Shown one piece after another: positions 676-34,161 of a stretch of 64,000 nucleotides of DNA (position 1 is the first letter of the stretch; each line of letters begins with the position of its first letter). The notes beneath the pieces were generated by a model that worked only from the letters and a program-made list of their open reading frames with translations, was not told where the DNA came from and ran no database searches. The stretch is from Eledone cirrhosa (Eukaryota): NCBI GenBank assembly GCA_964016885.1, contig OZ024741.1, positions 408,332,001 through 408,396,000 on the forward strand, in the 5' to 3' direction. The position numbers were made by a program, and so were the translations under genes.

Positions 676-677
<2 letters not shown>

Positions 678-881
678 CACACACACACACATATATACAC
701 ACACACATACACACGCGTACATCAACATACAAAGAGACTTATATATACACACACACACACACACACGCACTTCTCCGTATAAGACAAAAGCTGAAAAATA
801 TCTTTTGACATGCTAAAATACCCCCCCATTGCTTTCAGACACATTCTTACTGACCATCCCTGTCACCACGAATTACTCTGC

Positions 882-938
<57 letters not shown>

Positions 939-1008
939 ATCTTAATAGCAAATTTGACACACATCGCTGCTAACCATTATCACAACATCGAACGCCTTAC
1001 TACTACTA

Positions 1009-1066
<58 letters not shown>

Positions 1067-1091
1067 TTGTTGTGAAAGAGTCATTTCTCAA

Positions 1092-1309
1092 TCTTGGCGC
1101 AAAACCAATTTTTTATTCACATGACCTCTACCGACCAATCAAAATTGTTTTGACCACAAGAATTTTTGCTGGAGTCACTTTTTTAACATAAAAACAGTCT
1201 TGGCGCAAAATCAATTTTTTACATTCACATGACCTCTACCGACCAATCAAAATTGTTTTGACCACAAGAATTTTTGCAAATTGGAGCCACTTTTTTAACA
1301 TAAAAACAG
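1092..1309 (+). repeat. Internal ~106-112 bp tandem duplication in the pseudo-LTR (also at ~5997-6214)
   Basis: tcttggcgcaaaa...ttttttaacataaaaacag occurs twice in tandem in each pLTR copy. Confidence 0.9.
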
Positions 1310-1370
1310 GTAGAATTCCCAAAACTAATCAGATCAGAGCAAACAGCACGGACACTCTATCTCAAAATTA

Positions 1371-1408
1371 TTTTTGAAAAGCATTTAAAAATGTGCAACC
1401 GGTAAAAA
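1371..1408 (+). ncRNA. Variant minimal type I hammerhead ribozyme-like motif (5' pLTR)
   Basis: ttt-TTGAAAA-gcattt/aaatgt-GCAA-ccggt-A-aaa: short stem I, U3/A8 core, stem II, palindromic ACCGGT stem III; GCAA replaces GAAA. Confidence 0.55.
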
Positions 1409-1596
1409 CTTAAAAACTTAAAACCACAACTGAATACTAACCCATACAATCACTAATACTCTTTTATTCCTAATTAAACCATTTTTCAACTGTGAACAAT
1501 TTGTCAGCATTTTCTATTCCGTTTACCAATATATAATAACTTGTGTGTTACACCTCTATTCTTTTAACTATCATATCCTCACACGAGATACAGAAA

Positions 1597-2907
1597 ATGC
1601 CAACATTAACGGATACAACCCTCATCAACTCAAATGAAGAGATCCTAGAGGAACTCAAGAAAATCAACACCAACCTATCTTTGCTGGTCGACAAACTTGA
1701 CTCCACAAATAAGGAAACCGCCACCGGATACAAACCCTCCGAAATCGGCGACAAACTCCAAAACCTTTGCGATACTATCCAAACTATGTTCACTACTACC
1801 AACCCAGGAAAAACCAACGAAGAACCATGTGAGATTGATTCACACCAAATGAAAATTCGAACAATTCCAAAATGGAAAATATCCCTCAGAGACAGAAAGT
1901 TCTCATTCTGGAAGATGATACAAAACCACAACAAAGCAGAGATATATGAAAAATGGCTTAACTCAACCCCTCTAACTCTCCCCCGTAAACTACAAATAAA
2001 GTCCATTCCAAATGAACCCGAACCTCAAAGACACCTTAGGGAAAGAATGGCATTGGAAAAAATGAAGACAGAAATTGAACTTCTTAAACTGAGGGCCCAG
2101 AAAAATGAGGAAAAAATCAAAACCATCGATGAAGAGATCCTCCTGGAAATCAACAACAAAACTGAAGGCCCCAAGGTAGAGAAGATCTCCAAATTATGGA
2201 AAGGGGACTGCAACAGAGAAGAACTGAAATCCCTTCAACGCTGGGAAAAAAGTGCCGCTTGGTTCCTACACTATGAATCGACTTTTCAAACGGATTACAC
2301 CTCCAATAACCCGTTCATAAAAATAGGAAAACCCATAACTGAACCGCACAACAACTTCTCAAACCCCCAAGCCTCTAACAAACGAAGAAGGAAGCACCAC
2401 ACCGAAGATGAACTTCCCAACCTCGCTACCATAAGAAGGAACAAAAACCCAAGAAATCATCTCCCCCAGAATGACATTTACAACTTTCCTCCTTCAAGGA
2501 GACACCATACCAAATCACTCAACTACTACGCGGATGCCTCATCGTCAAACATAGGGAAAAGATACCACCGCCATGATAGATGTAACAACTTCCCCGCTTC
2601 AAGAGGACAGCAAGGTAATTACCATTTTCTCAACTCTCGCTTCCACAATACACAACAAACCCACACCACACGATACAACCAACAACGTAGGCCACTTATA
2701 ACACCACAATACAACATGGCACATAGAAACACACACCCATACTCGCAGTACAGGAACACCCCATTCAATCTACAACCACCAACCCGAACCACATTTTACA
2801 ACAACAAGGAATATAACAAACACAGGAGACCACTTAACATCAGCAGACAACCCCTCTACCCCAACCATTTTTTAGACACAGCACACAGATACAGGCAAAC
2901 AAAATAA
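1597..2907 (+). CDS. PLE-1 ORF1: predicted coiled-coil protein with a basic, N/Q/Y/R/H-rich C-terminal tail (436 aa from the first ATG)
   Basis: Uninterrupted ORF (track 1543..2907 starts at GTG; first ATG at 1597, context AAAATGC); heptad-like segments EEILEELKKINTNLSLLVDKL and RMALEKMKTEIELLKLRAQKNEEKIKTIDEEI; lies between pLTR and RT ORF. Confidence 0.75.
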   Translation: MPTLTDTTLINSNEEILEELKKINTNLSLLVDKLDSTNKETATGYKPSEIGDKLQNLCDTIQTMFTTTNPGKTNEEPCEIDSHQMKIRTIPKWKISLRDRKFSFWKMIQNHNKAEIYEKWLNSTPLTLPRKLQIKSIPNEPEPQRHLRERMALEKMKTEIELLKLRAQKNEEKIKTIDEEILLEINNKTEGPKVEKISKLWKGDCNREELKSLQRWEKSAAWFLHYESTFQTDYTSNNPFIKIGKPITEPHNNFSNPQASNKRRRKHHTEDELPNLATIRRNKNPRNHLPQNDIYNFPPSRRHHTKSLNYYADASSSNIGKRYHRHDRCNNFPASRGQQGNYHFLNSRFHNTQQTHTTRYNQQRRPLITPQYNMAHRNTHPYSQYRNTPFNLQPPTRTTFYNNKEYNKHRRPLNISRQPLYPNHFLDTAHRYRQTK

Positions 2908-5156
2908 CACAAGACAGGGAGGAGAAACCGATAGTAATAAAAATTATCAATCTTACTAGTGCAGAACCAACACCCAACCTTATCAACTTACTCTCCAAAG
3001 GTCTTAAATTCACACCGACCCCACTACGTCCTAACTACTATGAAATGAAGGAAGACATCACAGACTTCTGTAGAAAGTTACGACTTAGTGAACAACTATT
3101 CGACCAGTACAATGAGGATGAATCATTAGCCAGAAATAGAAGCAATTACACCCCTTCAAAAGGTAGAAATAAAATCCTGGACGAATTCTGTGAACACATC
3201 ACAAACTTCCCTTACCAACACTTGCACAGACAAAAACACAAGCCAAACCTCAACAAGAAAGAATGGGAAGAATTAAATAGATTAAAAACCGACAGAACCA
3301 TTACAATTAAAGAGGCTGATAAAGGGAGTACAGTAGTCCTAATGGAGACAGAATTCTATATCAACTTAGCGCTCTCCACTTTGGAAAACGAAACATACTA
3401 CGAAAAGGCTGAACACTACAATCAACAGAAAATTATGAGAAACCTAAAAACTCTAATCAACCAATACAAAGAAGGACTCACTAACAGGGAATTCAGCTTC
3501 ATCACAGACTTCACAAGTAAATCCAGCCTTTTCTACGGTATCCCTAAAGTACATAAAAGCGAATCAATAAGTAAGGCATGCAAGGAAGCCACAGACATAG
3601 TCATCAATGTCCCCTCACCCAATGATCTCAAATTAAGACCTATAATAGCAGGCCCCGCTTGCGAAACGCACCGTCTTAGCAACTTCATTGATACCCTTCT
3701 CAAACCCTTCCTCAAGCACATCAAAAGCTATATAAGGGACGACCTAGATATGCTCAATCACCTCCCTAATATGCCACATTCTGAACAAACCCTACTAGTG
3801 ACGTTCGATGTAGTCAACCTATTCTCCAACATCCTCCACAACCTAGGAATAGAAGCTATCCAATTCTGGCTGGATAATTTCCACAATGAACTCCCACAAC
3901 GCATCAAAAAAGAATTCGTGATAGAGGGACTCAAATTTATCTTGGAGAACAATTACTTCGTTTTCAATAACAAACCCTACAGGCAGAAATCTGGGACCGC
4001 TATGGGAACGAAAACAGCCCCCACTTATGCCAACCTAGTCATGGGATACCTGGAAATCACCCTCTACACTAAAGTCCTAAACGAATTTGGAAACACCCTC
4101 CACTTACACATTGAAAGGAACTGGAAGCGATATCCAGATGACTGCTTCATCCTTTGGCACGAAAACATCGAAAAACTTAAAGAATTTCACCCCCTTATAA
4201 ATGGGCTCAACACAAATATTAACTTCACGATGGAATACAGCCATCAACAACTCCCCTTCCTCGACATCCTCATTAAGATCCATAACAAAAAAATAGAAAC
4301 AGACATATACTACAAGCCCACAGACTCCAAGCAATATCTCCCCTTCAACTCTTGCCACCCTAGACACGTTAAAATTAATATTCCCTACAACTTAGCCAAG
4401 AGAATCTGTACTATAGTCTCCAATAAAAACATCTGCTACTTACGGCTACAAGAATTAAAGGACACACTCATAGGCAGGGACTACCCTGCATCACTAATTG
4501 ACAATGGAATCCAACGTGCCCTAAATCAACCAAAACTAAAAGCTCTTCCATACATCTCCACACACAACCCCCTCAACAATGAGGCCTTTGACACCATCCT
4601 CCAGAACATCCCTGTATTGAAAAAGGACCATAGAATGAACCAAATTCTACGAACACACGATATCATAAAGAGCAAAAGACAATCCAAGTCAATGAAAAAC
4701 ATCTTAACACATGCCAAAGTACTGCCAACCACAACAACGAAACCCACAGTAAAAAAATGTAATAGACACAACTGTGGCATTTGCATCAACCTAATAGAGG
4801 GTTCGGAATTCTATTTCAAAGATGGACAACGTTTTATAGTAAAACACAATTTCACATGTGCATCGGAAAATCTAATATATGTATTAACTTCTTCAGGTTG
4901 TCGAGAACAATACATAGGCCAGACCAAAAACAGCCTCCGCCAACGCATGACTGTCCATAGATCCCAAATCAAAATACGGGAATACAGGAAAATACCACTG
5001 AGTGAACACATTGATACCTGTGCCGCCCAAAATCATCCCAACTTCAGAATCTTTCCCCTCTACAAATTTAAAGATAATGCCACCCACACCCAGCGCACCA
5101 GCAAGGAATCTTACTTCATTAACAAATACGGACCCCGTCTAAACACTTCTCCCTAA
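2838..5156 (+). CDS. PLE-1 ORF2: reverse transcriptase, Cys-rich linker and GIY-YIG endonuclease
   Basis: Frame opens after TAA 2835-2837; first ATG only at 3045. Motifs: IINLTS...LLSKGLKFTPTP, IKEADKGS, LRPIIAG, TFDVVNLFSNI, GTAMGTKTAPTYANL, RYPDDCF, LPFLDI, YYKPTD..YLPFNSCHP, CNRHNCGIC, NLIY...YIGQT...R...H...E...LN. Confidence 0.93.
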   Translation, partial: HQQTTPLPQPFFRHSTQIQANKITQDREEKPIVIKIINLTSAEPTPNLINLLSKGLKFTPTPLRPNYYEMKEDITDFCRKLRLSEQLFDQYNEDESLARNRSNYTPSKGRNKILDEFCEHITNFPYQHLHRQKHKPNLNKKEWEELNRLKTDRTITIKEADKGSTVVLMETEFYINLALSTLENETYYEKAEHYNQQKIMRNLKTLINQYKEGLTNREFSFITDFTSKSSLFYGIPKVHKSESISKACKEATDIVINVPSPNDLKLRPIIAGPACETHRLSNFIDTLLKPFLKHIKSYIRDDLDMLNHLPNMPHSEQTLLVTFDVVNLFSNILHNLGIEAIQFWLDNFHNELPQRIKKEFVIEGLKFILENNYFVFNNKPYRQKSGTAMGTKTAPTYANLVMGYLEITLYTKVLNEFGNTLHLHIERNWKRYPDDCFILWHENIEKLKEFHPLINGLNTNINFTMEYSHQQLPFLDILIKIHNKKIETDIYYKPTDSKQYLPFNSCHPRHVKINIPYNLAKRICTIVSNKNICYLRLQELKDTLIGRDYPASLIDNGIQRALNQPKLKALPYISTHNPLNNEAFDTILQNIPVLKKDHRMNQILRTHDIIKSKRQSKSMKNILTHAKVLPTTTTKPTVKKCNRHNCGICINLIEGSEFYFKDGQRFIVKHNFTCASENLIYVLTSSGCREQYIGQTKNSLRQRMTVHRSQIKIREYRKIPLSEHIDTCAAQNHPNFRIFPLYKFKDNATHTQRTSKESYFINKYGPRLNTSP
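2868..2874 (+). promoter_or_regulatory. Candidate -1 ribosomal frameshift slippery heptamer T TTT TTA
   Basis: ORF1 codons cat-ttt-tta give X XXY YYZ in the correct phase, inside the ORF1/ORF2 overlap; ORF2 is in the -1 frame. Confidence 0.6.
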
Positions 5157-5535: not shown

Positions 5536-5569
<34 letters not shown>

Positions 5570-5748
5570 CACACACACATACACACGCGTACATCAACAT
5601 ACAAAGAGACTTATATATACACACACACACACACGCACTTCTCCGTATAAGACAAAAGCTGAAAAATATCTTTTGACATGCTAAAATACCCCCCATTGCT
5701 TTCAGACACATTCTTACTGACCATCCCTGCTACCACGAATTACTCTGC

Positions 5749-5795
<47 letters not shown>

Positions 5796-5876
5796 ACACA
5801 CACAATTATCTTAATAGCCATTTGACACACATCGCTGCTAACCATTATCACAACACCGAACACCTTACTACTACTA

Positions 5877-5957
<81 letters not shown>

Positions 5958-6430
5958 ACACACACACACACTTGTTGTGAAAGAGTCATTTCTCAATCTT
6001 GGCGCAAAACCAATTTTTTATTCACATGACCTCTGCCGACCAATCAAAATTATTTTGACCACAAGAATTTTTGCTGGAGCCACTTTTTTAACATAAAAAC
6101 AGTCTTGGCGCAAAATCAATTTTTTACATTCACATGACCTCTACCGACCAATCAAAATTGTTTTGACCACAAGAATTTTTGCAAATTGGAGCCACTTTTT
6201 TAACATAAAAACAGGCAGAATTCCCAAAACTAATCAGATCAGAGCAAACAGCACGGACACTCTATCTCAAAATTATTTTTGAAAAGCAATTAGAAATGCG
6301 CAACCGGTAAAAAGTTAAAAACTTAAAACCACAACTGAATACTAACCCATACAAACACTAATACTCTTTTATTCCTAATTAAACCATTTTTCAACTGTGA
6401 ACAATTTGTCAGCATTTTCTATTCCGTTTA

Positions 6431-6440
<10 letters not shown>
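5536..6440 (+). repeat. 3' pseudo-LTR of PLE-1
   Basis: Direct repeat of 676-1535; runs into (TA)n. Confidence 0.93.
6276..6314 (+). ncRNA. Variant minimal hammerhead ribozyme-like motif (3' pLTR)
   Basis: ttt-TTGAAAA-gca attagaaa tgc-GCAA-ccggt-A-aaa; same layout as 1371-1408. Confidence 0.55.
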
Positions 6441-8280: not shown

Positions 8281-10935
8281 CACAAAAGCCTTCCCTAGTG
8301 AGGAATGTACATCCCAACATAGCTTAGTTGTCAGCGACCTCACGGTCAGAACTAGACGAGCCCTGAAACAGAGGCCAACCTGGAGAAGAAAGATCTGGAA
8401 GCTGAAAGTCCGCTCAACCAGTAACAGATTTAAAGATATTTTACTCAACGCCTACGACAGTAAAGAAGAACAGATAGAGACATTTAACGTAGAAGAGAAC
8501 TGGGAGTTCCTAAAAAATAACTTACTAGAGGCGACGGATGAGGTTTGTGGCTGGAGTAAGACCTCAAGGAGGAGGAGAGTGACTTGGTGGTGGAACAATA
8601 AGGTAGATGAAGCAGTCAAGGCCAAGAGACAGGCATGGAAAGAATGGAAGAACGGGGGGGAGCAGGGTACATTACATAGAGACCAAGAGGGAAGCTAGGC
8701 GACAAGTATACTTAGCTAGGAGGGAAGCAGAGGATAGAAAATTCAAGCATGTTTTACAACGTGAGGACCAGAAACAGGAGGTATTCAAGATTGCGAGGCA
8801 GTGTGTCAGAGATAGTTGTGATGTCATTGGAGAGAAGTGTATCCGGAATGATAAAGGTGAGCTTGCCCTCACAAGTGCTGAGAAGAAAGATGCATGGAAG
8901 AGTCATTATGATAGATTACTAAATGAGGAGAATGCATGGGAAGAAGAGACCCTACCCCACGTAGACCCTATAGAGGGACCAGCAGTACAAGTCAGCGGCA
9001 GCGTAGTAAGTAAGGCAATCAGAGATATGAAGATAGGGAAGGCAACCGGTCCATCGGGTATAGCTGCCGAGATGCTGAAGGCATCTGGGTCTGTAGGTCA
9101 CACTATAACCACACGTATCGTTAACCAGGTAATACTAGAGGGGGCCATACCAAAAGATTGGTGCAGTAGCATCATTGTCAACTGCTACAAAGGTAAAGGC
9201 GATGCACTAGATAGAGGAAACTATAGAGGTATAAAGTTGATGGACCAGGTCATGAAAGTAACAGAAAGAGTTATAGCACAGCTGATTAGGGACCGGGTGA
9301 ATATAGACGAGATGCAATTTGGGTTTGTACCAGAGAAAGGCACCACTGATGCCCTCTTCCTTGTGAGGCAATTACAGGAAAAGTACCTAGCTAAAAGTAA
9401 GCCACTCTACTTGGCATTTGTCGACCTTGAGAAAGCCTTTGACAGAGTTCCACGTGCAGTAATCTGGTGGGCTCTTAGAAAACTAGGAGTAGATGAATGG
9501 CTTGTGAAAGCGGTACAAGCCATGTATAGGGGAGCAGTCAGCAAAGTTAGGATTGGCAATGAGTATAGCGAGGAATTTAGCGTACAGGTTGGGGTCCACC
9601 AGGGCTCTGTTCTTAGCCCTCTCCTGTTCATCATAGTCCTGCAGGCAATAACGGAGGAGTTTAAGACCGGATGCCCATGGGAACTCCTGTATGCTGATGA
9701 CCTCGCACTCATAGCTGAATCTATGGTAGAACTAGAGAATAAATTCCAAACCTGGAAGCAGGGACTAGAGAGAAAGGGCCTCAAAGTCAACATGACAAAG
9801 ACTAAGGTCCTTATAAGTAGACGAGAAAACAGAACCCAGATCCCCTCAGGGAAATGGCCTTGCTCAGTATGTAGGAAAGGTGTAGGTAGGAACTCCATTC
9901 TCTGCCCCAAATGCAAACAATGGGTACACAAGAGATGTAGCGGGGATCTCAGGAAGCTTAATTAAGAATGTAGGATTCACATGCAGCAGCTGTGCTGAAA
10001 CAGCAAGCAAACAGCCACAGGAAACAAGTACCACCAATCTCTGGGAGGGCCTTTCTGCTACCTAGGTGACCGAATTAGCAACGGAGGTGGGTGCTCAGAA
10101 AGTACAATAACTAGGGTAAGAACGGGATGGAAGAAGTTTAGGGAACTACTACCACTGCTAGCTGCAAAAGGCTTCTCCCTCAGAATGAAAGGCAGACTGT
10201 ATGATGCGTGTATCCGAACAGCGATGTTGCATGGTAGTGAGACCTGGGCGCTGAAGGTGGAAGACTTACGTAGATTAGAGAGAAACGAAGCCTGCATGCT
10301 CCGATGGATGTGTAACAGTAATATACGTGAACGACAAAGCATAAAGGAATTGTAAGAGAGACTGAGCATAAGAGGAATCAAATGCTGCGTGCAGGAGAGG
10401 CGGTTACGCTGGTATGGACATGTGATGCGTATGAAGGATGACAGCTGCATAAAAAGGTGCAGAGCACTAGAAGTTGATGGAAACCGCGGAGTGGGGAGAC
10501 CCAAGATGACTTGGGATGAGGTGATAAAAGCCGACCTTACCCAACTACACCTCTCAAAGTCAATGACACACGACCGTGACTTCTGGCGTCACGCAGTAAT
10601 ACAGGGTACCCGACCTCCCATGGGTACATGCTGAAGCATATAAACAATATGCCCCCCCCCCCACCGCAAGGTGGTCGTGGAGGTGCCACGGCAAAAAAGC
10701 ACCCAGCCCACACTGTAAAGTGGACGTGTAGGCGCCACGAAAAAGCACCCAGCACTCACTGTAAATGAGGTTTGTGTTAGGAAGGGCATCCAGCTGTAGA
10801 AATCAAGCCAGATCAGTTCCTGTATGAGCAAGGCATGGTCAGCCGACCAGACACTGCCCACAACAGGACAACCCGTCTAACCCATGCTAGCGTAGAAGAA
10901 CGGACGTAAAACGGTGATGATGATGATGATGATGA
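8281..10935 (+). mobile_element. RTE-clade LINE, 5'-truncated and decayed, with (GAT)n tail
   Basis: Starts at the end of the APE domain (SEECTSQHSLVVSDL); WWWN motif; RT motifs YKGKGD..NYRGI, QFGF, AFVDLEKAFDRV, GVHQGSVLSP, LYADD, FCYLG, LHGSETW, RLRWYGHV; 3' UTR ends aacccatgctagcg...gtaaaacggtgatgatgat. Confidence 0.95.
8283..10634 (+). pseudogene. Disrupted RTE ORF (end of endonuclease, RT, Cys-rich finger)
   Basis: Frameshift at the G7 run ~8654-8660, further disruption near 9950-10050, in-frame TAA at ~10353; pieces match track ORFs 8264..8698, 8607..9965 and 10389..10634. Confidence 0.88.
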
Positions 10936-30326: not shown

Positions 30327-30449
30327 GGAGGTGAGTTTTATTGTAGTACACTAAAGCAATGCAGATATCGGATAAGAAGCACTCTACAGTTTGTGGGACT
30401 GGAGTATGCATAATATAAGATCAAAAGATGGTTAAAGGAGTTCCATATA

Positions 30450-30516
30450 TTTTATTATGCGCATTTCAAAAACAAACATCATCAAGCAATAATATTTGTG
30501 TTTTCATCAGATAAAA
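30450..30516 (-). ncRNA. Type I hammerhead ribozyme (inverted copy)
   Basis: Reverse complement of 34009-34075. Confidence 0.85.
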
Positions 30517-31634
30517 CAGGAGAACATGATATGAAGGCTAAAAAACACTTGTGGAAACAGTTTTAAATCAACATATGAAAAGTGGTTTTAGATTGATGTG
30601 TGATATTGGGAAAAATATTTTATTTAGAGAGGGGGGGGGAGGATGAAAGGGGAGGAGATGAGAGGGAGAGATGGGTGATAGAGAGAAAGAGATAGTTTTT
30701 ATAACTGAGAGGAGATATATTTGTTACATAGAGAGGTTGAAAACCGTTGGAAGATACTGTATAAATTAAAAATTTTGAAAATTAACGAAGGGAGGATATG
30801 TGCGAGGAAAAATATTTTATTTAGGGAGGGCGGGTGGAAAGGATGAAAAAAAGGGGGGAGGAGATGAGAGTGAAGGTGGAGAGGGAGAGATGGGTGATAG
30901 AGAGAAAGAGATAGTTTTTATAACTGAGAAAAAGTTATATTGTTTTAATATAGAGAGGTTGGGAACCGTTGGAAGATAATGTATAAATTAAAGGAATTTG
31001 AAAATTAACGAAGGGAAATTATGTATGAAGATAGAGAGAAAAAAATAATAATTGTGGGTGAATATTCTAACGTCAAAAAAAGAAATGTATGTATTGTGGC
31101 AATTTCCAAATTAGCGAAGAGAAAAATTGTTAAGGTTTGTGTGTAGAAGGATTTGAGAAAAATAATGTGAAGTTAAAGTTTGTATATTGATTGAATTGAT
31201 GATATGTGCGAATAAAGAGTTAATATGTATTAATAATGAGTTCGTTGATGGGGAGAAAAAAATAATAATAAATTAAGGATGAAATTGAGATTAAAAAGAT
31301 TTATGATAGAGAGAAAAAATAATAATGATTGCGGATGAATATTCAAATGACAAAAACAAAAACAAATGTTATGATTTTACGAGAAGATAGAATGAGGGTA
31401 ATGAGTAAACGAGTATTATAGAGTGTATAATGCCCTTTAAAGTAAGGTAGATGGGTATATTTTAAAGAGGTGTATGTATATGTGCCTTTGAGAAAAGATT
31501 CTAAATTGATAAAGAATTGAATATTAACTGTATACTTTGTGAAAAGTTCTATGGAATTTATGCAGGCAGATAGAAAACAAATCTGAGCGTCTATTTATTA
31601 TAGAATCTAGGTTAGAGATAATGGTAAATTTTTG

Positions 31635-33002
31635 AGTCGGAAAATTCCTCAACTTCGCGGTGGAATTTATCGTGACGATGGACTCTTTACTATCCTAAAT
31701 TGCAATATAGTTAAACTTAATATTATTAAGAACAATATACGTAATCTCTTTAACCAACATAACCTAAAAATTGAATTTGATAATAGTATCAAACTAGCTA
31801 ATTTCTTGGATGTATCTCTTAATCTTGACACTGGCCTATATTACCCTTACCATAAAAACAATGAGAACCTTAATTATGTTAACTTTAAATCTAACCATCC
31901 TACCAATATCAAGAATGCTATAGTTAATAATATTGGAAATAGAATATCTAACATATCTTCTAATAAAAACATCTTTGATGCTAACGCCAATTACTATAAT
32001 AACGCACTTTCTAAAGCCGTCTATCCAGATAAAATCACATATAATAAAGAAACAAATTCTAGAAAAACTTACAGTAGAATAATTAATCATAACCATTCCA
32101 ATAATTTTAATAAAAGACCTAGATACAAAAACATAATCTGGTATAATGCTCCTTTCTCCATCTCTATTAATAACAATATTCCTAAATTATTTTTTAGTGC
32201 CTTAAATAAATGCTTCCCTCCCTCACATATCTATAGTAAAATATTTAACAAACACACCATCAAATTTTCGTATTCTACATCCTCCAATATTTCCAACATC
32301 ATCTCTAAACACAACAACAAAATATTAAATACTAAATCTCTTCCTTCCAATATTGAATTTCATAATAACAGTAATAGTACTCCCGACGTCATTGTAAACC
32401 CTAGGCTAACTTCTGTAAACCCAAATACAACGTCAAACACAACTTCGCTAAATGTTCATAATCCAACTCTAAATCAAGAAACTATTATTCCTATTATTCC
32501 TATCGCAAACAACTTCTCCAATCCAATTCCTTCTATAGATAACACTAGATCACTCATTAATAATCTCTCTAATTGCAACTGCCGCATTAAAAATAAATGT
32601 CCTCTCAACAACCATTGCCTCGATAAAAACTTAATTTATGAATGTAAAATTATAACTAGCACCAATTCCTTCACCTATTTTGGCTCCACTTCCACCTCTT
32701 TTAAAGCTCGTCTCTATAATCATCATTCATCTTTCAAATACAAACTTAAAAGAACTAACACTGCTCTCTCAGAACTCATATGGTCCCTAAAAGACAAAAA
32801 CATTAAATATACCATCTTTTGGAAGAAGATTTCTTCTGCATCCTCATACTTGAACAGCTCTCTATCTAAAATCTGTAATCTCTGCCTAAATGAAAAATTT
32901 ACCATTATCTCTAACCTAGATTCTATAATAAATAGACGCTCAGATTTGTTTTCTATCTGCCTGCATAAATTCCATAGAACTTTTCACAAAGTATACAGTT
33001 AA
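31635..33002 (+). pseudogene. 5'-truncated PLE-2 ORF: RT C-terminal half and GIY-YIG endonuclease
   Basis: GIYRDDGL, NFLDVSLNL, YVNFKSNHP, IIWYNAPFS, KIFNKHTIKFSYS, CNCR..CPL..C..NLIY..YFG..FKAR..H..TALSELIWSLK..CNLCLNEK; the TTG start at 31632 is only the inversion junction. Confidence 0.88.
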
Positions 33003-33510
33003 TATTCAATTCTTTATCAATTTAGAATCTTTTCTCAAAGGCACATATACATACACCTCTTTAAAATATACCCATCTACCTTACTTTAAAGGGCATTATA
33101 CACTCTATAATACTCGTTTACTCATTACCCTCATTCTATCTTCTCGTAAAATCATAACATTTGTTTTTGTTTTTGTCATTTGAATATTCATCCGCAATCA
33201 TTATTATTTTTTCTCTCTATCATAAATCTTTTTAATCTCAATTTCATCCTTAATTTATTATTATTTTTTTCTCCCCATCAACGAACTCATTATTAATACA
33301 TATTAACTCTTTATTCGCACATATCATCAATTCAATCAATATACAAACTTTAACTTCACATTATTTTTCTCAAATCCTTCTACACACTAACCTTAACAAT
33401 TTTTCTCTTCGCTAATTTTGAAATTGCCACAATACATACATTTCTTCTTTTGACGTTAGAATATTCACCCACAATTATTATTTTTTTCTCTCTATCTTCA
33501 TACATAATTT

Positions 33511-33913
33511 CCCTTCGTTAATTTTCAAATTCCTTTAATTTATACATTATCTTTCAACGGTTCCCAACCTCTCTATATTAAAACAATATATCTTTTTCTC
33601 AGTTATAAGAACTATCTCTTTCTCTCTATCACCCATCTCTCCCTCTCCACCTTCACTCTCATCTCCTCCCCCCTTTTTTTCATCCTTTCCACCCCCCTCC
33701 CTAAATAAAATATTTTTCCTCGCACATATCCTCCCTTCGTTAATTTTCAAAATTTTTAATTTATACAGTATCTTCCAACGGTTTTCAACCTCTCTATGTA
33801 ACAAATATATCTCCTCTCAGTTATAAAAACTATCTCTTTCTCTCTATCACCCATCTCTCCCTCTCATCTCCTCCCCTTTCACCCCCCCCCCTCTCTAAAT
33901 AAAATATTTTTCC
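33511..33913 (+). repeat. ~222 bp-period diverged tandem duplication in the PLE-2 3' UTR (mirrored in the inverted arm)
   Basis: cccttcgttaattttcaaa...ctaaataaaatatttttcc at 33511 and 33733. Confidence 0.85.
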
Positions 33914-34008
33914 CAATATCACACATCAATCTAAAACCACTTTTCATATGTTGATTTGAAACTGCACTATCCACAAGTGTTTTTTAGCCTTCATATAATG
34001 TTCTCCTG

Positions 34009-34075
34009 TTTTATCTGATGAAAACACAAATATTATTGCTTGATGATGTTTGTTTTTGAAATGCGCATAATAAAA
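34009..34075 (+). ncRNA. Type I hammerhead ribozyme with palindromic stem III; predicted cleavage after AUA at 34069
   Basis: Stem I ttttat/ataaaa; CTGATGA 34015-21; long stem II (acaaatattatt-gctt-gatgatgtttgt); GAAA 34058-61; ATGCGCAT palindrome. Confidence 0.87.
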
Positions 34076-34107
34076 TATATGGAACTCCTTTAACCATCTT
34101 TTGATCT

Positions 34108-34161
<54 letters not shown>

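Follow-up and report, generated by a model that had tools for sequence, protein, structure and literature searches.

The window analysed here (64,000 nucleotides (nt) of Eledone cirrhosa, GenBank assembly GCA_964016885.1, contig OZ024741.1, positions 408,332,001 to 408,396,000 of the forward strand; all coordinates count from its first letter) contains a young, high-copy, endonuclease-bearing (EN+) Penelope-like retroelement (PLE). Its frame for reverse transcriptase (RT) and GIY-YIG endonuclease (EN) lies at -1 relative to a separate upstream open reading frame (ORF1), and the conservation of the junction makes a programmed -1 ribosomal frameshift (PRF) at the heptamer T TTT TTA likely. Frameshifting of ORF1 in PLEs as such is already in print; new is a spacing of exactly ten codons between heptamer and ORF1 stop. 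That a widespread clade of two-ORF EN+ PLEs uses a natural collision-programmed -1 frameshift, with the stop held one ribosome length from the heptamer, falls just short of an even chance. The features of the junction are:

1597..2907, + strand: ORF1, 436 amino acids (AA), with a predicted all-helical N-terminal domain and an N/Q/R/H-rich low-complexity tail
2838..5156, + strand: ORF2 frame (RT and GIY-YIG), 772 AA, at -1 to ORF1 with an overlap of 70 nt; first ATG at 3045
2868..2874, + strand: slippery heptamer T TTT TTA in ORF1 phase (codons cat-ttt-tta), followed by G
2875..2904, + strand: spacer from the heptamer to the ORF1 stop, 10 codons, unstructured, of equal length in homologues and DNA junctions
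2905..2908, + strand: ORF1 stop TAA with C at +4, the putative pause site of a leading ribosome
2943..3023, + strand: N-terminal RT motif IINL..LSKGLKFTPTP, upstream of the first ATG, with invariant columns in a 17-sequence alignment

The probable frameshift junction and its conservation

The ORF1 frame is open from 1540 to 2907, with the ATG at 1597 and the stop TAA at 2905-2907. An original prediction, made from the letters alone, had placed the end of ORF1 at 2907 and the opening of the -1 frame at 2838, with 70 nt of overlap; these coordinates were confirmed, as were the ORF1 phase of the heptamer and the lack of an RT-frame ATG before 3045. The prediction also held that a start at 3045 would omit the N-terminal RT motif, and this motif does lie upstream of it. 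For a slip at the heptamer, the fusion computed for the window copy has 1186 AA, the length that had been estimated.

Genomic junctions of the family were collected using a flanking pattern which spans the T run and gave 376 matches in the source genome. Among the 100 matches listed, 90 read T6A, 4 T5 and 4 T7, and 2 had substitutions; in contrast to canonical single-ORF EN+ PLEs, a separate ORF1 with the -1 overlap is thus present in 90 of them. The in-frame T7 form was found at 5 of the 376 places genome-wide, on at least 2 subfamily backgrounds, so the family is not a single-ORF family with a damaged member in the window. Independent public contigs of unrecorded kind cross the T run without a gap (X4, 2792-4222; X5, 2770-2920).

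The heptamer and the overlap are kept in other families and in distant relatives, a point which the prediction had left to be checked. In other families of the source genome, whose RT is 44-70% identical to that of the window, T6A lies upstream in 62 of 81 RT anchors and in exact -1 phase in 49, the remainder being truncated or carrying indels. ORF1 homologues formed 600 clusters at 50% identity; the best 150 of these were examined, and 92 proteins were near-full-length (≥ 290 AA). Of the 92, 73 have Phe-Leu close to the end of ORF1 and 69 have it within the last 35 residues, where 5.7 were expected from upstream windows. The residue preceding Phe can have a codon ending in T in all 73 (background 0.78). 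Two database proteins, P0051 and P0055, continue from ORF1 into the RT at the same spot (..RFFR.. and ..PFFR..).

On the DNA level, 22 of the best 80 of 155 metagenome loci had an ORF1 profile match, which lies in the frame making the RT -1 in 21 and comes with an in-phase heptamer in 20. One ORF1-positive locus, L208 (~715-760), is without the canonical heptamer, and its ORF1 ends in Tyr-Phe plus exactly 10 codons. For further counts, 39 junctions were chosen by their heptamer (27 from metagenomes, 12 from the source genome), after heptamers whose upstream frame is short (L164, L166, L168, L179, L181, L182, L201 and others) had been dropped as chance. The heptamer reads T TTT TTA in 31, T TTT TTG in 7 and T TTA AAC in 1. 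About 0.08 in-phase T6A/T6G are expected by chance over the 39 junction regions; the heptamer alone is common. Since the junctions were picked by the heptamer, such counts are circular, and the protein-level homologue counts are the non-circular test; the two sets overlap in 1 of 35 junctions checked. The -1 frame is closed at most 2 codons upstream in 17 of the 39 junctions, and no Met precedes the conserved RT motif in 29 of 35.

The heptamer is therefore conserved in the 0-frame phase, as in the X XXY YYZ signals of classical -1 PRF. A stem-loop or pseudoknot 5-9 nt downstream, the other classical component, was not found by local folding. Downstream of the heptamer in the window there was no hairpin (z -1.1 and +0.15), as the prediction had remarked, and no H-type pseudoknot in a crude scan; these results are local, and long-range pairing is possible. 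The junction set had no excess of RNA structure either (mean z -0.24). Conservation thus supports the gag-pol-like -1 frameshift which had been suggested, and what the prediction overlooked is the conserved ten-codon distance to the stop, which may supply the missing stimulator.

Spacing between heptamer and ORF1 stop codon

A spacer of exactly 10 codons was found in the window, in 26 of the 73 homologues (none has a shorter one) and in 14 of the 39 DNA junctions. Among the homologues, the next best peak for any dipeptide and position unrelated to Phe-Leu is 8. When the codons of the RT frame were shuffled in 36 junctions, 1.4 ten-codon spacers were expected against 14 observed (maximum 6 in 2000 shuffles); with the RT peptide held fixed, the expectation was 8.4 (p 0.0055). 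Spacers of less than 10 codons are depleted, with 5 observed versus 21.6 in the codon shuffles and 7.5 with the peptide fixed.

Within the ten-codon group the spacers cannot be aligned, the RT motif lies at distances between 16 and 68 AA, the stop is TAA, TAG or TGA, and the RT identities across which the spacing is retained are 27-50%. At codon 11, TAA is used by the window family and a sister family; in a third family, 14 of 18 copies have TGA. A potential stall site thus lies one ribosome length past the heptamer, as collision-stimulated frameshifting would demand. C at +4 after the stop was more frequent in the ten-codon group (9/14 versus 4/25 in the others, p 0.004; by lineage about 5/9 versus 4/19, hand count), which is a weak hint. 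Small bumps in the homologue spacers at 20-23 and 31 codons were also seen; stops at such distances in the source genome stem from the IINL codons. One lineage (L160, L178, L210) has the ten-codon spacing together with a hairpin ending just ahead of the stop (z -1.2 to -4.3).

Proposed mechanism and alternative explanations

Most ribosomes would terminate at the ORF1 stop and yield ORF1 protein alone, while some would slip back by one base at T TTT TTA and produce an ORF1-RT-GIY-YIG fusion. The slip would be triggered by collision with a ribosome that has paused ten codons ahead, at the end of ORF1, not by RNA structure: with the stop in the A site of the leading ribosome, the trailing one would be held up in mid-translocation, as its Phe and Leu tRNAs pass over the heptamer. 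The terminating ribosome is suggested as stimulator because the ten-codon spacing matches the spacing of collided eukaryotic ribosomes and the collision-driven -1 shift known from synthetic reporters in E. coli. In these reporters, the -1 shift peaks with 9 codons from the heptamer to a slow UGA (Smith et al. 2019, PMC6815119). In yeast, the minimal collision gap is given as 10 codons, and human stop codons are sites of disome accumulation (preprint, 10.1101/2023.02.01.526718); a second ribosome about 30 nt upstream of stalled stops is described in PMC7544199. Given frameshifting, the case for a queued ribosome as its stimulator is evenly balanced. The mechanism as a whole, a -1 frameshift stimulated by the terminating ribosome, is put forward tentatively and with a little less assurance than that.

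If it holds, RT output would scale with the ribosome load on the element RNA, and the element would provide a natural, conserved, eukaryotic collision-driven -1 frameshift, the other examples found being one mutant of a virus and the engineered reporters in E. coli. A structure-free class of signals (heptamer, 30 nt, stop), missed by predictors which seek downstream structure, would also be defined. Irrespective of the stimulator, the likely frameshift shows in concrete terms how EN+ PLEs of a large, active group, usually regarded as single-ORF, are expressed.

A number of observations weigh against the collision mechanism. Spacers are longer than 10 codons in 47 of the 73 homologues, and abundant close relatives in the source genome have TGG instead of a stop at codon 11. 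Four metagenome loci of two lineages (L155, L158, L159, L165) have spacers of 1-4 codons that look natural, and 4 of 93 proteins have a spacer below 10 codons when Phe-Phe and partial sequences are counted (151 proteins). On a quick tree the ten-codon state is clustered, with 9 changes, of which starred branches force 5, versus 22 after shuffling, and 21 of 27 ten-codon cases belong to one clade of 29; the cases are therefore mostly inherited, and the p-values above overstate their independence. The RT-frame peptide alone can yield much of the excess (8.4 of 14), and what is conserved may be a nucleotide element, as T is found at +31 in 25 of the 39 junctions. Finally, spacing and hairpin are combined in the lineage L160/L178/L210, and yeast collisions are reported to cause +1 shifts (PMC7544199).

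Much of this would equally suit a real -1 frameshift for which U UUU UUA is slippery enough by itself, or which is driven by an undetected stimulator, such as long-range pairing, a protein-binding element or the nascent peptide, with the stop at codon 11 inherited or part of such an element. All evidence for frameshifting applies to this explanation as well. Families with spacers of 19-31 codons are abundant in the source genome, spacers of 1-4 codons occur, several lineages have TGG in place of the stop, and the ten-codon label clusters on the tree. It accounts less well for the exact ten codons kept despite unalignable spacers, 27-50% RT identity and exchanges of the stop codon, for the depletion of shorter spacers, which is strong against codon shuffles and much less so with the peptide fixed, and for the lack of a common structure. 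We hold it to be quite possible, though it too stays below an even chance.

The remaining alternatives explain the RT frame by other means than slippage. Internal initiation, or termination followed by reinitiation near the ORF1 stop, is suggested by an RT-frame ATG at codon 11 in several source-genome families (L230-L247, L073, L100), an ATG that shares bases with the stop as ATGA in the third family and reads ATGG in those with TGG at this place, and by the closest database RT proteins, which are annotated from a Met just ahead of the conserved motif. However, the window family and its sister carry ATA at this place with no ATG before 3045, 29 of 35 junctions are without a Met ahead of the motif, and the in-phase heptamer would be left unexplained; this route is improbable. 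Splicing fares slightly worse. The original prediction had cautioned that TTTTTTAG could be a 3' splice site, which would connect the RT frame to an exon further upstream; an AG follows the T run in 29 of 39 junctions, and introns are retained in PLEs (PMC8557442). The AG is, however, absent in 10 of 39 junctions, including a whole multi-copy family of the source genome which reads TTTTTTAAC, and the residue after Leu cannot start with G in 21 of the 73 homologues. Moreover, the 7 in-frame GT sites are all unlike a donor consensus, and conservation of the ORF1 phase would be unneeded, which leaves splicing very improbable. That the offset stems from an indel which inactivated a non-autonomous source copy, or from misassembly of the T run, could be imagined from the T5 and T7 variants, from two T7 copies (L223, L224) that share subfamily variants, and from the damage in the window copy. 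This reading is largely refuted by the copy counts and the relatives: T7 is rare and lies on at least 2 subfamily backgrounds, independent contigs agree, the same offset exists in distant relatives, and the shared RT changes are under purifying selection.

Coding sequences of the element

Further domains in the two frames are:

1624..2295, + strand: helical, coiled-coil-like domain of ORF1 (helices at AA 10-233; AlphaFold2 mean predicted local distance difference test (pLDDT) 85, predicted TM score (pTM) 0.67)
3630..4187, + strand: RT core (Pfam RVT_1, E 6e-6, slightly below the curated cut-off)
4758..4784, + strand: CX4CxxC zinc-finger-like linker of the Neptune/Nematis type, recognized in the sequence using the motif definition of PMC8557442
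4872..5141, + strand: GIY-YIG endonuclease (Pfam PF01541, E 7e-6, above the cut-off)

The RT is of the PLE type according to the RVT_1 match, the GLKFTPTP motif and 93 homologues, a placement by motifs without a reference tree; the protein-database search for homologues covered lengths up to 1351 AA, fused forms above this length being outside its range. The catalytic motif is YPDD at 4131-4142 in the window copy and YLDD in most copies. Between families, the ratio of non-synonymous to synonymous substitution rates (dN/dS) of the RT is 0.1-0.16. RT changes common to at least 3 of 47 copies were 9 synonymous to 1 non-synonymous, versus 64 to 147 for private changes (Fisher p 0.0002). From this ratio it follows that source copies needed their own RT, i.e., the RT was under purifying selection. 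Comparison of ORF1 with two other families gave a dN of 0.38-0.45 and a dS of 1.7-2.4, with a dN/dS of about 0.2 for the domain. Both frames are thus under purifying selection while the -1 offset is retained.

In a number of distant PLEs (L162, L164, L166, L168, L177, L179-L183, L187, L218 and L221), the RT frame is open over 200-340 AA ahead of the motif, and the ORF1 profile had no match; these are probably single-ORF elements. This lack of an ORF1 match together with an RT frame that extends far upstream is seen in many of the more distant metagenome loci.

ORF1 had no Pfam family, no match in the ESM Atlas and no Foldseek match at E ≤ 0.001. The best VIA hits (Z 8.8) were generic helical bundles, without a specific fold match. 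These failed searches for a family or fold establish neither novelty nor absence of relatives. With the homologues described above, an unannotated ORF1 protein family is defined. From its position and by analogy, ORF1 may be a helical protein which builds ribonucleoprotein particles and would be made in excess.

The element and its genomic family

The element is bounded by direct repeats resembling pseudo long terminal repeats (pseudo-LTRs):

677..1535, + strand: 5' pseudo-LTR-like direct repeat, a copy of the 3' end of the element, with (TA)n upstream; public contigs break off at 1535 into TATATA
5549..6440, + strand: 3' pseudo-LTR-like direct repeat, ending in (TA)n

The two repeats are 93% identical, an arrangement typical of EN+ PLEs. 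No hammerhead ribozyme was detected by Rfam or by the pattern CTGANGA..GAAA, searches which atypical variants can escape (PMC4209133). By eye, a hammerhead-like motif (CTGAGGA..stem..GAAAC) was noted on the minus strand of L130, in the DNA flanking a truncated copy, where it precedes the RT motif by about 200-260 nt.

The family is young, since the 40 best-scored genome matches are near-identical. The window copy itself is damaged: it has YPDD where 51 of 57 loci have YLDD, and a 36-nt in-frame deletion near 4522. A protein search of the source genome returned the window's own family only, and a pattern search for GLKFCP had no match. Viral contigs contained one weak locus. The few named protein relatives are from bivalves; among the bivalve gene models, P0020, P0051 and P0082 include pieces of PLE RT or ORF1, one under the name Toll-like receptor 4, and are likely annotation artefacts.

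The depth of public contigs over 1144-1575, within the terminal repeat, is about 50-400x that over the 5' part of ORF1, and it climbs steadily from 5' to 3' along the RT. This pattern indicates that copies are heavily truncated at the 5' end and that some may be non-autonomous derivatives.

Comparison with known systems

The slippery site of HIV-1 gag-pol is U UUU UUA. The element shares with gag-pol this heptamer, the order of structural protein before polymerase and a G which often follows, but has no stimulatory stem-loop and no retroviral gag, protease or integrase. For the HIV-1 site, a GGG context is described in PMC5009743.

Among PLEs, the Neptune/Nematis EN+ group (Craig et al. 2021, PMC8557442) resembles the element in the RT, the CX2-5CxxC linker and the C-terminal GIY-YIG domain, and also in the pseudo-LTR-like direct repeats with (TA)n flanks. 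The CX4CxxC at 4758-4784 is such a linker between RT and EN, so that the assignment is by motif, and the EN region of the window looks similar by eye to the Neptune rows of Fig. S2 of that paper. Canonical EN+ PLEs are described there as single-ORF, whereas in the window a separate 436-AA helical ORF1 precedes the -1 RT. The legend of Fig. 1 in PMC8557442 mentions an ORF1 separable by a frameshift with pseudoknot, the clade meant not being visible in the accessible text. While the frameshift suggested by the original prediction is supported, its novelty is thus somewhat lower than had been assumed. These two-ORF PLEs have the upstream ORF1 joined to the RT by frameshifting in common with the window element, which is without the pseudoknot. 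The coiled-coil ORFs of endonuclease-lacking (EN-) Athena/Terminon elements (PMC6431247) are similar to ORF1 by description only, and the window element has an endonuclease. Unlike EN- Athena/Coprina elements, it carries GIY-YIG, and its copies are interspersed over many contigs. Some Neptune-like PLEs bear an esterase (PMC5408684, PMC3905857), which ORF1 is not.

In the E. coli reporters (PMC6815119), the heptamer likewise lies one ribosome length ahead of a stall site without RNA structure. They are engineered, bacterial and peak at 9 codons, whereas the present case, as judged from sequence, would be natural, conserved and eukaryotic with a mode of 10 codons. The accessible text of PMC8310308 cites stimulation by a trailing ribosome only for the E. 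coli work and for a herpes thymidine kinase mutant, a drug-selected case of non-stop stimulation, unlike the natural PLE case. In the literature search, no stop-spaced frameshift in a retroelement was found; Arkhipova 2006 or Repbase reports may describe ORF1 and a frameshift.

Other features of the window

A tandem satellite with a 53-bp unit, present in more than 500 copies, extends from about 34230 onward. A long inverted repeat is located at 30405-31633 and 32893-34120; its arms are 95-98% complementary and about 1.26 kb apart, and it represents a fold-back or terminal inverted repeat (TIR) element. A second, unrelated RT frame of 452 AA lies at 8607-9965 (+ strand) and has a Pfam RVT_1 match and a C-terminal PHD-like match. 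It is probably a fragment of a long interspersed nuclear element (LINE), perhaps RTE-like.

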